In this document: positions 1 to 14,552 of the stretch, one piece after another | Layout: every line of letters begins with the position of its first letter | How positions within the stretch are numbered: the stretch's first letter is position 1 | From: a virus | Lineage: Duplodnaviria > Heunggongvirae > Uroviricota > Caudoviricetes | DNA length: 54,417 nt | Strand: one strand, 5' to 3' | Virus record (IMG/VR): IMGVR_UViG_3300009784_000001 | Location: 1 to 54,417 of that record | Made by a program: the position numbers and the translations under genes | Notes under the pieces: model-generated | What the model saw: only the letters and a program-made list of their open reading frames with translations | What the model was told of the DNA's origin: nothing | The model's database searches: none

Positions 1-59
1 CGAGTTATCGGTATACGTATGCGTCTGCGTTTGCGGGTTGCGCCTCTCGCCTACACTTG
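1..59 (+). repeat. DGR variable region VR1 (partial)
   Basis: Aligns to TR 204-256 with a 6-nt insertion; every substitution is at a TR adenine. Confidence 0.9.
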
Positions 60-137
60 CCCACAGAATGGGCTGTGAAATATGTTTATAATATAAATCA
101 AGAGTTCTTTGGTTATTGGAAAGAATATATGCGTTAA
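1..137 (+). CDS. 3' end of DGR target gene 1 (partial, cut by window start)
   Basis: Frame from nt 3 reads SYRYTYASAFAGCASRLHLPTEWAVKYVYNINQEFFGYWKEYMR*, homologous to the C-terminus of ORF 14094..14552 (AGCASRLYLP...WKEYML). Not in the ORF track. Confidence 0.85.
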   Translation, partial: SYRYTYASAFAGCASRLHLPTEWAVKYVYNINQEFFGYWKEYMR

Positions 138-166
138 ATTAAAAAGGTTGTTTGTTTTTATAGAGG

Positions 167-256
167 TGGTTTTATCTGGATTCTCCTTTTCAGTTCAATG
201 ATACGAATTATCAGAATACGAATACGAATGCAGGTTGCACCTCTCACCTAAAATTG
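167..256 (+). ncRNA. DGR template region (TR)
   Basis: Intergenic, rich in AAT/ACG triplets, directly upstream of the RT; 74/90 identical to 14394-14483 with all 16 mismatches at TR adenines. Confidence 0.95.
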
Positions 257-285
257 TTTAAGAGATTAAAATAAAGACAAAGACC

Positions 286-299
286 TTACCTCTTGGTAA
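286..299 (+). other. Hairpin in the TR-RT spacer (candidate DGR RNA structural element)
   Basis: ttacc-tctt-ggtaa stem-loop 30 nt downstream of TR; function inferred only from position. Confidence 0.45.
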
Positions 300-374
300 A
301 AAATAGCTTTTTTTGATTATGGAGTATTGGTAAATTTTATATTGAAGATTCTCTAAAAATGCAAGTGTAAATCT

Positions 375-1661
375 ATGAAAAGAGTAAATAATTTATTTAA
401 TAAAATTGTTGAAGAAGAAAATATTTACAAGGCTTATGAAAGAGCTAAAAAGCATAAAAGTAATAGAAAAGAAATAAAAATCTTTGAAAAGAATTTACAT
501 CTTAATTTAACAGAAATAAAAGATGAATTAACACATGGTGAATATAAAACATCTAAATATCATATTTTTACTCTATATGATCCAAAAGAAAGAGTAATTT
601 ATAAATTACCTTTTAAAGATAGAATAGTTCATCATGCAATAATGAATGTATTAGAAAAGGTATGGCTTTCTGTATTTATTTCTAATACATTTTCTTGTAT
701 AAAGGGCAGAGGAATTCATGCTTTAGTATATAAATTGAAAGATGATTTAAAAAATAATATAGAAGAAACTACATATTGCCTTAAATTTGATATTAAAAAG
801 TTCTATCCAAGTGTTAATCATGATATACTTAAATCCATTATTAAAAAGAAAATAAAAGATAAAAGAGTATTGAGTTTATTAGATGAAATTATTAATTCTG
901 CACCAGGTTTACCTATTGGAAATTATTTATCACAATATTTAGCTAATCTTTATTTGAGTTATTTTGATCACTGGCTGAAAGAAACAAAAAAAGTAAAGTA
1001 TTATTATAGATATGCAGATGATCTTGTAATATTACATAAAGATAAAAAATATTTACATGACTTGTTAAGTGATATTAAAGAATATTTGGCTGATAATTTA
1101 TTGCTTGAAGTTAAGCATAATTACCAGATATTTCCAGTAGAAAAAAGAGGGATAGATTTTGTAGGATATGTTTTTTATCATACTCATTTACTTTTGAGGA
1201 AAAGAATAAAGAAAAATTTTTGTAGAAAAGTAAGTAAATTAAATAAAAAAGATATATCTTTGAAACAATATAAACAAAAAATTTGTTCTTGGTTTGGATG
1301 GCTGAACCATTGTAACTCTAACAATTTAATAAAAAAAACTCTTATGAATAAATTTGCAGATTTTAATATTTCAGTGAATGATAAGACAATATTTAATGTA
1401 CCAAAAGTATCTATTACTGATTTAGTTAATAAAGAAATTGAAATATTGGATTATCAATCAAATATAACTACTTCACAAGGAAATGGAAGATATATTGTAA
1501 AGATTAAAAATGGTAATGTACAACAGAAATTCTTTACCAATGCTTCTCCCTTAAAAGATGCTTTGAAACAAGTTAAAAAAGAACAATTTCCATTTACTAC
1601 TACTATAAAGAATAAATCTTATGATGAAAATGGAAATAAAAAAACTTATTTTTTTACTTAA
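375..1661 (+). CDS. DGR reverse transcriptase with extra C-terminal domain
   Basis: Motifs LPFKDRIVHHAI, KGRGIH, CLKFDIKKFYPS, GLPIGNYLSQ, YYRYADD; adjacent TR; residues ~324-428 lie beyond the RT core. Confidence 0.95.
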   Translation: MKRVNNLFNKIVEEENIYKAYERAKKHKSNRKEIKIFEKNLHLNLTEIKDELTHGEYKTSKYHIFTLYDPKERVIYKLPFKDRIVHHAIMNVLEKVWLSVFISNTFSCIKGRGIHALVYKLKDDLKNNIEETTYCLKFDIKKFYPSVNHDILKSIIKKKIKDKRVLSLLDEIINSAPGLPIGNYLSQYLANLYLSYFDHWLKETKKVKYYYRYADDLVILHKDKKYLHDLLSDIKEYLADNLLLEVKHNYQIFPVEKRGIDFVGYVFYHTHLLLRKRIKKNFCRKVSKLNKKDISLKQYKQKICSWFGWLNHCNSNNLIKKTLMNKFADFNISVNDKTIFNVPKVSITDLVNKEIEILDYQSNITTSQGNGRYIVKIKNGNVQQKFFTNASPLKDALKQVKKEQFPFTTTIKNKSYDENGNKKTYFFT

Positions 1662-1666
1662 ATCAT

Positions 1667-2071
1667 ATGAAAATAGTTAAACCAGAAGATATTTTAAAGA
1701 AAAAAAATGAGTCTTTAAAATTTAAAAAAGAAGTAGAAAAGTTAACAGAAAAAATTAATGAAAAGATAGAAACTTATTCTAGTCTTTTATGTGATTATGG
1801 AAAATTATATTTTGAAATGGATAATAATAATTTTTGTTTTTATTCAGAAAATGTTATTAAAAACGTTCAATCTTTATTTAGAGAAGCTGGATGGAATTTT
1901 TCATATAAAATGAATAAACATGAAGAATTATTACAAAATAGTTTAACTCATAAAGAAAGCTGGGGCGTAGTAACTCCACAAACAAAAATAATAAATACTA
2001 TTGAATTTACTATTGAATCTGATTTATTAAAAAGTTCAACATTTCCACAATATATAGGAGAAGAGCAATGA
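1667..2071 (+). CDS. hypothetical protein
   Basis: ORF tightly packed after the RT. Confidence 0.7.
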   Translation: MKIVKPEDILKKKNESLKFKKEVEKLTEKINEKIETYSSLLCDYGKLYFEMDNNNFCFYSENVIKNVQSLFREAGWNFSYKMNKHEELLQNSLTHKESWGVVTPQTKIINTIEFTIESDLLKSSTFPQYIGEEQ

Positions 2072-2583
2072 AAACAAGTGATGAATTGAAATATAAAAAT
2101 TATAATGTAGGAGTAATTGTGGGAAGATTTCAAGTTCCTGAATTACATAAAATGCACAAAGATTTAATTCGATCAGTTTTAGATAGACATGAAAAAGTTT
2201 ATATATTTCTTGGAATACCAAAAAATAATGAATTAACTGTTTCAAATCCTTTACCATTTGATGCAAGGCAGGAAATGATTGTTACTGAATTTCCTGATGT
2301 AAAAGTATTATTCATAAAAGATAAAGAAAGTAATCAGGAATGGGTAAATAATTTGGATGATCAAATTCAAAGTATTACTACTTCTTTTGATAAAGTTACA
2401 GTATATGGAAGTAGAGATAGCTTTCTTAATACTTATTTTGAATGTAAAGGAATATATCCATCTACTGAATTAATTTCTACTGAAAGATTATCTGGCACTG
2501 AATGTAGACATGATATAGCTCGAAAAACAATTAATTCAGTTGATTTTAGAAAAGGGATAATTTATGCGATTTTGAATAAATGA
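2068..2583 (+). CDS. NadM-like cytidylyltransferase-family protein (putative NMN adenylyltransferase)
   Basis: GVIVGRFQ..LHKMH (HxGH-like), NPLPF, YGSRDSF, SGTECR; no Nudix domain follows. Confidence 0.75.
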   Translation: MKTSDELKYKNYNVGVIVGRFQVPELHKMHKDLIRSVLDRHEKVYIFLGIPKNNELTVSNPLPFDARQEMIVTEFPDVKVLFIKDKESNQEWVNNLDDQIQSITTSFDKVTVYGSRDSFLNTYFECKGIYPSTELISTERLSGTECRHDIARKTINSVDFRKGIIYAILNK

Positions 2584-3245: not shown

Positions 3246-3653
3246 ATGGAAGATAAAAGTAAAGAAGCAAAAAAGTATGAATTAACTATTAAAAAGTTAA
3301 GAGGAATTTTAAAATCGGATAATGTTAGTTTACCAACAAAAGTTCCTGCAAATGAATTGCAAACATTAGTAGAAGAATTATTTAAGGAAGAAAATGAAAA
3401 CAATGTAAAATTGTTAAAAGAACAATTGAGAGAACTATTGAAGAAACATGTTCAGATGGAAAGTGGAATTAAAGAGAAAGAAAAAGAATTGGCTAAATTA
3501 AAAAAAGAAAAACAAGCCGAATTTGTTAAGGCATCAGAAGAATTATTTAATAAAATATCTGATATTGACAGTCTTACTTCTCAATATGGTGAATCTCTTA
3601 AAAGTGCTATGGGAGAGGATACTGAGGAAGATATAGAAGTAGATGCGGAATAA
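3246..3653 (+). CDS. coiled-coil hypothetical protein
   Basis: E/K/L-rich heptad pattern, acidic tail. Confidence 0.7.
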   Translation: MEDKSKEAKKYELTIKKLRGILKSDNVSLPTKVPANELQTLVEELFKEENENNVKLLKEQLRELLKKHVQMESGIKEKEKELAKLKKEKQAEFVKASEELFNKISDIDSLTSQYGESLKSAMGEDTEEDIEVDAE

Positions 3654-3673
3654 TCCATGTTTGTTTATTGTTG

Positions 3674-3710
3674 AAGAACATTTCTTGAAAAGGGGATGTT
3701 CTTTTTTTTT
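3674..3710 (+). terminator. intrinsic terminator
   Basis: aagaacat...atgttctt stem followed by a T-run. Confidence 0.6.
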
Positions 3711-3718
3711 AATGTTAT

Positions 3719-3764
3719 TTAACACTTTATATATTTGATAATTGAAATATTTTTTGTATCTTTG
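3719..3764 (+). promoter_or_regulatory. promoter with upstream TTAAC element
   Basis: TTAAC 3719-23, TTTG 3734-37, 19 nt, TAtcTTTG 3757-64. Confidence 0.75.
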
Positions 3765-3768
3765 TAGT

Positions 3769-4911
3769 ATGTTAGAAAATATAATAAATAAAGAAACTTT
3801 TGAAGTTAATTGGAATTTGGTTGAACAACTTCCAGATTTTGTTTTACTTAAAAAAGGTGGCTATCATGCTGATTGGCATGGTGAAGGAAATTCTTATATT
3901 CATACGCAAAATGTAGTAAATGCTGCTTATACTTTACCTGAATGGAATGAATTAGTTAATAGAGAAAAGTATATTTTAATATGTGCTTGTTTATTTCATG
4001 ATATTGGTAAAGGAGTTTGTAATACAATGAAAGAAGATGGTAATTGGTCAGCTCCTCATCATGCAAAAACAGGAGAAAAAATAGCAAGATATTTGTTATG
4101 GGATGAACCTTTTGAATTAAGAGAAATGATTTGTTCTTTGATAAAATATCATATGAAATTTACTTATTTAATTGAAAAGGAAGCAAGTGAGATTGATAGA
4201 ACTGTTGTTGAAATTTCATTAAATTCCAATGTTAAATTACTTTATTTATTAAATAAATGCGATAGTTTAGGGGCAATTTCTATTGATAGAGAAGATACAT
4301 TAATCAAAAAGGAATTATTGAAAGAAAGAGCAATTGCATTACATTGTTTTGATGAACCATTTGAATTTCATAATGATATAAGTAAGTTTCATTATTTCAA
4401 TAGTAATGAAAATAATTCTTCCCCATATCTTCAATTATTTGATGATACAAAATTTGATATTTATATAATGTCAGGAATTGCAGGTAGTGGAAAAAGTTAT
4501 TACTTAAAAAACAATTTATCTTCTTTGCCTATTATTTCAAGAGATATAATTAGACAAGAACTTGGTTTTGTAGATGCTAATGGTAAATTCAAAGGCGATA
4601 AACAACAAGAAAGTAAAGTAACTGAAATAGAAGAAGAAAAAATAAAGGAATGTTGTAGAAATAAACAATCCTTTGTATATGATAATATGTCAATTAAAAA
4701 GATGTGGAGAGATAAATTTATTAATCTTGTTCTTCCTTATAATCTTAAAATTCATATTGTGTATGTTGAAACTTCTAAAGAAAATAACATTATGAGAAGA
4801 AAAGGACAGATTGCAAAAGATGCTATTATTAAGATGCAAAGGGATTTAGAGATGCCTCATTTAACTGATTGTCATAAAATTATTTATTCTTTAAATGATA
4901 GAAAAATATGA
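3769..4911 (+). CDS. HD-domain / P-loop kinase fusion (polynucleotide kinase-phosphatase-like)
   Basis: HADWHGEG..YIHT, CLFHDIGK (HD), then GIAGSGKS Walker A and SRDIIR. Start moved from 3742 to ATG 3769 because the promoter overlaps 3742-3764. Confidence 0.8.
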   Translation: MLENIINKETFEVNWNLVEQLPDFVLLKKGGYHADWHGEGNSYIHTQNVVNAAYTLPEWNELVNREKYILICACLFHDIGKGVCNTMKEDGNWSAPHHAKTGEKIARYLLWDEPFELREMICSLIKYHMKFTYLIEKEASEIDRTVVEISLNSNVKLLYLLNKCDSLGAISIDREDTLIKKELLKERAIALHCFDEPFEFHNDISKFHYFNSNENNSSPYLQLFDDTKFDIYIMSGIAGSGKSYYLKNNLSSLPIISRDIIRQELGFVDANGKFKGDKQQESKVTEIEEEKIKECCRNKQSFVYDNMSIKKMWRDKFINLVLPYNLKIHIVYVETSKENNIMRRKGQIAKDAIIKMQRDLEMPHLTDCHKIIYSLNDRKI

Positions 4912-14093: not shown

Positions 14094-14552
14094 ATGGAAC
14101 TGAAAATAAATGTAGATGATTGTAGTTTATCTAATAAACTTGTGAAATTTTTGAAAGATAATAACATTTGTGTAAATATAACACACAAATCTTTTAATTC
14201 ATATAAAGATATTACATCTTTTGAAGATGCTTTGGAATGTTTGGGAGAAGTGGATGAATATGTTGATTATCATGCAGTAGTTAAATCTCATCATTATGCT
14301 TTATATAAATTGGAAACAATTATTAAAGCTATCAATAAGATTGAAAATTGGGAACCAAATTGGCAAAATTACAATCAAAAAAAATGCTATCCTTGGTTTT
14401 TTCTGGGTTCTCCTTTTCGGTTCTTTGATACGTATTATCGGAATGCGTTTACGTATGCGGGTTGCGCCTCTCGCCTATACTTGCCCTCCTCAGAAATAGC
14501 AACTTATGTAGGAAAGGAATTTTTAAATTTGTGGAAAGAATATATGCTATGA
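14094..14552 (+). CDS. DGR target protein 2 (remote target)
   Basis: Contains VR2; ITSFEDA, YKLETIIKAIN, WEPNW..NQKK.YPWF; paralogous to target 1. Confidence 0.9.
   Translation: MELKINVDDCSLSNKLVKFLKDNNICVNITHKSFNSYKDITSFEDALECLGEVDEYVDYHAVVKSHHYALYKLETIIKAINKIENWEPNWQNYNQKKCYPWFFLGSPFRFFDTYYRNAFTYAGCASRLYLPSSEIATYVGKEFLNLWKEYML
14394..14483 (+). repeat. DGR variable region VR2
   Basis: 90-nt ungapped match to TR 167-256; 16 mismatches, all at 26 available TR adenines. Confidence 0.95.

Follow-up and report, generated by a model that had tools for sequence, protein, structure and literature searches.

The DGR of Bordetella phage BPP-1 (mtd-avd-TR-brt; PDB 8ub7 series) comprises a target with a 3ʹ VR, a TR with adenine-specific differences, and a DGR-type RT (bRT) preceded by a spacer RNA. 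Handa et al. (bioRxiv 10.1101/2023.10.23.563531) place the contact of Avd with bRT at the N-terminal extension of the latter. In their 2018 survey, Wu et al. (PMC5758913) describe unexplained extensions at the C-terminus of ~20% of DGR RTs, a Lineage 3 devoid of avd, and 29% of DGRs without an accessory gene. In that survey and in PMC7290462, no fold or role is given for the RT extension, and a separate gene of ~100 aa is not listed as an accessory. The RT of hankyphage (Bacteroides phage p00, BK010646) ends in a domain of this kind, as we show below; the hankyphage paper (Benler et al. 2018, PMC6199706) mentions a small ORF of Avd-like size and pI and does not describe the domain. In the library that was searched, literature searches on DGRs with OB-fold, Avd or Lineage 3 accessories returned no paper describing it. 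Here we report that the RT of a jumbo phage DGR carries this 105-aa domain, and that the domain is a strong candidate, on sequence and model evidence, for the helper subunit of an Avd-less DGR RT.

The window, i.e. the whole stretch of 54,417 nucleotides that was analysed, opens a record of 359,943 nt (26% G+C, 123-nt terminal repeat), which corresponds to a complete 360-kb genome. Because of the terminal repeat, the sequence upstream of the window is the genome end. Target gene 1 begins near the end of the record, at genome position 359232, and runs on into the start of the window, with a frame that stays open across the 123-nt repeat, so that only its 3ʹ end (1..137, + strand, stop at 137) lies at the beginning of the window. 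The C-terminus of the wrapped ORF contains VR1 (genome ~359781 to 359943, continuing to window ~60), followed by the TR (~164..262, + strand). With the TR adenines read as N, the TR matched VR1, a second target at VR2 (~14391..14483, + strand), and a third VR outside the window, ~71 kb away (genome ~71260-71353, - strand). The DGR is thus a multi-target one, with three VRs matching one TR, and its targets are small, C-type-lectin-like genes. VR1 differs from the TR at TR adenines; it also has 6 extra nt (two codons) relative to the TR, located at a hexamer repeat of the TACGAA type, whereas VR2 has the TR length.

Adenine-specific TR/VR pairs, a VR at the target 3ʹ end and a DGR-type RT beside the TR make this a working-looking DGR. 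Its target-TR-RT order without avd is that of "Lineage 3 / Architecture A" of Wu et al. (PMC5758913). It differs from the BPP-1 element in the absence of Avd from the genome, in an extra 105-aa predicted beta-barrel on the RT, in having several small targets, and in an RT-17-type spacer. Two further genes follow the RT. The ORF at 1667-2071 (134 aa, pI 5.8) was considered as an equivalent of Avd or CH1 and rejected: it had no Avd match, is unlike the hankyphage DUF4376 gene, and is not conserved beside related RTs. The next gene, at 2068-2583 (+ strand), encodes a 171-aa cytidylyltransferase-like or NMN adenylyltransferase-like protein.

The RT is encoded by an ORF of 428 aa at 375..1661 (+ strand, stop at 1659-1661). 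Residues 1-323 (375..1343) constitute the DGR RT core, with an N-terminal extension, fingers, a palm with YADD, and a thumb. The YADD and IGNYLSQ motifs are readable in the core sequence, which ends with ...WFGWLNHCNSNNLIKKTL, directly before Met324 (ATG at 1344). The core matched RVT_1 (E 3.6e-21) and the phage RT family phrog_1423 (E 1e-128), and it is 32-33% identical to BPP-1 Brt over 98% of its length; its closest relatives are the RTs of crAss-like phages (50-58% identity). The best structural match was BPP-1 bRT (8ub7_A; E 2e-24, TM 0.90, rmsd 2.1 Å, 326 columns), on the whole of which the core superposes, and the next-best matches were group II intron RTs.

A fused C-terminal domain of ~105 aa beginning at Met324 had been proposed in a sequence-only reading of this DNA, and both its coordinates and the end of the core proved correct. 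The domain (1344..1661, + strand; residues 324-428 plus the stop; 105 aa), hereafter called the module, corresponds end to end to phrog_19665, a family of unknown function (E 3.1e-26, with residues 1-105 aligned to positions 2-105 of a 105-position profile). Among 1.8 billion cluster representatives, 169 relatives were recovered at E < 1e-3, including about 100 stand-alone proteins of ~100 aa and about 20 located at the C-terminus of RVT_1 proteins of 430-580 aa. Thus, the tail is not a chance extension of the ORF. Sequence searches of Pfam, NCBIfam and the PDB gave no match to the module. A weak PADLOC match to Cas2 (E 0.0016) was taken as chance, as was the match to P0123, a 1001-aa NHL-repeat protein. 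The module is basic, with a pI of 9.55 (family median 8.7), and its residues M1 and F4 are at least 90% conserved.

The tail had also been expected to be beta-rich, which is borne out by the AlphaFold model (pLDDT 86.8, from a 73-sequence alignment). The model contains five strands and one helix in the order E31-43, E46-56, E59-65, H68-76, E84-92 and E100-104, i.e. an OB arrangement with the helix between strands 3 and 4. Foldseek found no significant match for the model (E of at least 0.16), and its top rows were almost all OB folds. An independent structure search pointed to the OB domain of RuvBL2 (2cqa, Z 5.8), the PRD1 SSB P12 (9gfq, Z 5.6) and the Rim1 SSB (6cqk, Z 5.4), and further neighbours were bacterial SSBs, PriB, RPA70N, editosome OB folds, gp32, HIN domains and Teb1. 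Almost all of these neighbours are single-strand binders with an OB fold. These scores are modest (best Z 5.8) and within the range of common arrangements, the small beta-barrel being a common one. In one nearby cluster of the ESM Atlas, 44% of the members were labelled as Phi29 SSB. The module resembles small OB binders (PRD1 P12, Rim1, bacterial SSB, PriB) and telomerase partners (Teb1, RPA70N) in predicted barrel topology and size (Z 3.8-5.8); it differs from them in showing no sequence similarity and in being dedicated to a DGR RT and not to replication. Taken as a prediction, the fold is probably of the OB type, and we refer to it as OB-like rather than proven OB. The module is not Avd itself, as a beta-barrel without a match to Avd profiles is distinct from the ~120-aa four-helix bundle of Avd.

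In the model of the full-length RT (pLDDT 88.1, pTM 0.69), residues 325-337 (1347..1385, + strand), which form the conserved N-terminal peptide of the module, have a pLDDT below 50. We therefore read the module, as modelled, as a separate globule tethered to the thumb C-terminus by a flexible linker of ~13 residues; in the full-length monomer model it was not docked confidently on the RT. The tether site differs from that of Avd, which sits at the N-terminal extension of bRT, and it is close to the place where a single-stranded "Thumb Ring" RNA wraps bRT, as described in the preprint (bioRxiv 10.1101/2023.10.23.563531).

The module adjoins a DGR-type RT in all of the 126 related loci, which come from phages, proviruses and Bacteroidales genomes. 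For the close subfamily 80 viral loci were fetched, and in 80/80 the module follows immediately 3ʹ of an RT whose core shares ~60% identity with that of the window; the same position was found in 31/31 loci of the distant subfamily (~30% identity to the module of the window) and in 15/15 loci of bacterial genomes, all Bacteroidales. The nearest cellular homologs of the window's DGR module are likewise all found in Bacteroidales. TR/VR pairs with adenine-only mismatches were present in 82 of the 87 viral module loci that had enough upstream flank. The linkage spans different phage backbones, proviruses and an archaeal virus, and conservation of further neighbours is limited to small target paralogs, ~3 per locus, the target of the window included.

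A family HMM recovered fused modules in hankyphage and BKO1-TP3, a module within the split RT of LoVEphage, and a separate protein in a Methanosarcinales virus; it found none in BPP-1, VP585, Perkons, fEV-1 or two crAss-like phages. The hankyphage RT (434 aa) has the same fused C-terminal module (40% identity by tblastn, family HMM E 1e-36). The RT cores of the two phages are 35% identical, and the DGR of hankyphage has a single giant target, with a DUF4376 gene downstream that is absent in the window. In the Methanosarcinales virus vir525 (BK063673, L119:3492-3779) the module is a 95-aa ORF overlapping the RT stop (HMM E 2e-18), so that the family reaches archaeal viruses. The RT of LoVEphage (MW660583, L003:2799-4342) is annotated as three ORFs (271, 29 and 194 aa), the last of which carries the module; the RT may be broken or frameshifted, or the split may be one of annotation only. 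In BPP-1 and VP585, small ORFs (bbp4 of L116 and gp21 of L121, respectively) also overlap the RT 3ʹ end, and they fall outside the OB family.

The sequence-only reading had interpreted the tail as an accessory that replaces Avd, having noticed no Avd-like ORF between target 1, the TR and the RT. Indeed, no ORF fits into the stretch that leads from the target stop (137) through the TR (~164-262) to the RT start (375). The ORFs at the genome end that precede target gene 1 are unrelated, and no avd is among them. PF05635 alone would be an unfair test, as it misses the BPP-1 Avd; hence PF22296 was added, which recovered the Avd proteins of BPP-1 (E 2e-37) and VP585 (E 1.5e-32) as positive controls. 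In a six-frame search of the whole 359,943-nt genome, neither profile gave a match at E <= 1. No Avd match with either profile was found in 23 module-bearing viral records, nor with PF22296 in hankyphage, BKO1-TP3, LoVEphage and the archaeal virus. Conversely, in a sample centred on the Avd-linked VP585 RT, the module was present in 0/79 loci and Avd in 37/41 records. Overall, Avd occurred in 0/28 records with the module versus 39/46 without it (Fisher p 3e-14, a statistic uncorrected for phylogeny and confounded by the shared ancestry of the sampled loci). The module and Avd are thus mutually exclusive in the sampled records, in line with the anti-correlation that had been suggested as a check. 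At one locus with a crAss-type RT (L201), a clear module homolog (30% identity, E 9e-12) is placed after the last target and ahead of the TR, in the slot that avd occupies in BPP-1; the order in L201:2533-5011 is target, target, OB gene (3464-3796), TR (3818-3928) and RT.

Among crAss-like DGRs, 73/80 loci were without the module, which was present in 0/15 complete genomes, and Avd was likewise absent. This agrees with PMC7290462, where one crAss-like RT is assigned to Lineage 3. The module is therefore no general requirement of Avd-less DGRs. As a side observation, the RT gene of the crAss-like phage cr52_1 (L117:2501-3526) has 6 in-frame stops under table 11, most of them aligned with Q of the window's RT; the gene is open under code 15 (TAG=Q), which indicates stop-codon recoding in that phage. 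Because the crAss-like RT relatives have neither protein, and because the tether geometry differs from that of Avd, we regard the Avd-replacing interpretation as partly supported, even though each computational check suggested with it turned out in its favour. What is well supported by comparative evidence is a dedicated, RT-linked accessory, probably with an OB fold, whose presence excludes Avd.

Between the TR and the RT, a structured spacer RNA (282..363, + strand) resembles the Rfam family RT-17 (RF03020), with 33.2 bits (gathering score 40.4) and E 5.8e-4 over the full model length. It is conserved in 25 related DGR spacers and has two helices, with compensatory changes in 7/9 pairs, which flank a conserved A-rich single strand. 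This strand is a plausible candidate ligand of the module. We infer that the module would bind the RT and nucleic acid and that retrohoming may require it. As the most likely mechanism, the module would hold single-stranded DGR RNA, e.g. the A-rich spacer stretch, or the emerging cDNA, and its binding would give order or stability to the template-primer complex from which adenine-mutagenic cDNA is made. It would then take over, in this lineage, at least part of the job of the pentameric Avd of BPP-1-type DGRs. That the module is the nucleic-acid-binding accessory of the RT and takes over part of the Avd function is the reading we favour, as a moderately probable one. Given its tether to the thumb, as opposed to the N-terminal contact of Avd, the module may also do a different job from Avd, e.g. 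bind single-stranded RNA or cDNA.

The fused state of the window is the exception among related loci. The module is a separate ORF in 110/111 related viral loci and in 15/15 bacterial loci, and it is fused in 1/111 and 0/15. Separate genes of ~100 aa just 3ʹ of RTs, which the sequence-only reading had mentioned for Bacteroidota phage DGRs, were in fact the commonest form among the 126 loci. They lie mostly in the +1 frame and overlap the RT stop, usually by 17, 14, 29, 23, 8 or 4 nt (range 4-41); the overlap suggests that translation is coupled, with the RT and the module made in roughly equal amounts. At the fusion junction of the window (1331..1343, + strand), an A8 run (1331-1338) is followed by ACTCTT and abuts the ATG of the module; related loci have a stop or a frame change at this point, and the layout of the window is that of its relatives minus one nucleotide. 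As we read the sequence, loss of one A would make the RT terminate as ...IKKLL-TGA and its stop overlap the ATG, which is how four relatives are laid out. The closest homolog found, P0001 (91% identical), is recorded as a stand-alone 105-aa protein starting from the same Met; a degenerate DNA pattern for very close relatives had no match in the viral collection. The separate ORFs of the relatives, the P0001 record and a junction just after the A8 run, at which one base switches the state, would be expected if the fusion in the window had arisen by an error of assembly or sequencing, or by a neutral mutation of very recent date, and the phage made two proteins. We consider this improbable: other lineages commonly carry in-frame fusions, among them hankyphage genomes derived from isolates, so the fused form is viable, and the frame through KKTL agrees with the conserved RT tail KK[VI]L. 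Fusions were found in the window, in L052, in hankyphage (434 aa), in BKO1-TP3 and in 20 fused cluster representatives, so that recurrent fusion to the RT, which had been named with RT adjacency among the suggested checks, was also seen. When the fused state was mapped on a quick tree built from 110 domain sequences, it required ~19 changes, as many as shuffled labels need, with at least 8 forced by supported branches; fusion and fission have thus happened many times. A -1 ribosomal frameshift at the A-run was rejected as a general route to fusion in the relatives, as the module is mostly in the +1 frame of the RT. A sequencing error at the junction would leave the identity of the module unaffected.

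Whether fused or separate, the module could act at another step than the one we favour. Group II intron RTs, which come next after bRT among the structural matches of the core, have their D domain directly C-terminal to the thumb, where the module also sits; the D domain, like the module with its predicted binding, is an extra nucleic-acid-binding part. The D domain is helical, with a fold unlike that of the module. Since the nearest folds of the module are ssDNA binders, it might work after cDNA synthesis, binding ssDNA or target DNA for retrohoming, and not as an Avd-like RNP organiser. The crAss-like DGRs, which manage without the module, would be expected if host factors could cover such a step, and bRT has no additional subdomain, according to its authors (bioRxiv 10.1101/2023.10.23.563531). 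However, mutual exclusion with Avd would be surprising if the two proteins served different steps, and the module homolog of L201 sits in the avd slot, so that we think a role confined to retrohoming unlikely. More remote still is a generic small phage protein, such as a replication SSB, that accompanies the RT gene by chance and contributes nothing to the DGR. The fold class is indeed common to small phage SSBs, and phrog_19665 has no assigned function in PHROGs. Such a protein would hardly adjoin the RT in 126/126 loci across diverse backbones while other flanking genes are not conserved, nor would it be fused to the RT repeatedly and be absent from 79 Avd-type DGR loci and 15 complete crAss-like genomes; we judge this explanation very improbable.

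Beyond the preferred reading of a nucleic-acid-binding accessory that does part of the Avd job, a bolder version is conceivable, and we put it forward tentatively, as somewhat doubtful. The module would be an obligatory nucleic-acid-handling subunit of a whole Avd-less DGR branch that includes hankyphage, an archaeal virus and many phages and proviruses of Bacteroidales. Its ligand would be the A-rich single strand of RT-17-type spacers or nascent cDNA, and it would be needed for priming or processivity. The fused and separate forms would interconvert by single-base changes at the overlap, and slippage at an A-run such as A8 might yield both RT and RT-module. If this were true, the module would be a second, structurally unrelated solution to the Avd problem.

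The window is distinguished by the rare fused state, which occurs here in a phage of 360 kb whose DGR has several targets. A self-contained polypeptide of RT plus helper would be of interest for DGR-based targeted protein diversification. The module is small, naturally fused to the enzyme, and present in the cultivable hankyphage-Bacteroides system, and its role is therefore directly testable. How the roughly one quarter of DGRs that are without Avd make mutagenic cDNA has been a standing question since the 2018 survey (PMC5758913), and the module provides a concrete, clonable candidate for the answer.
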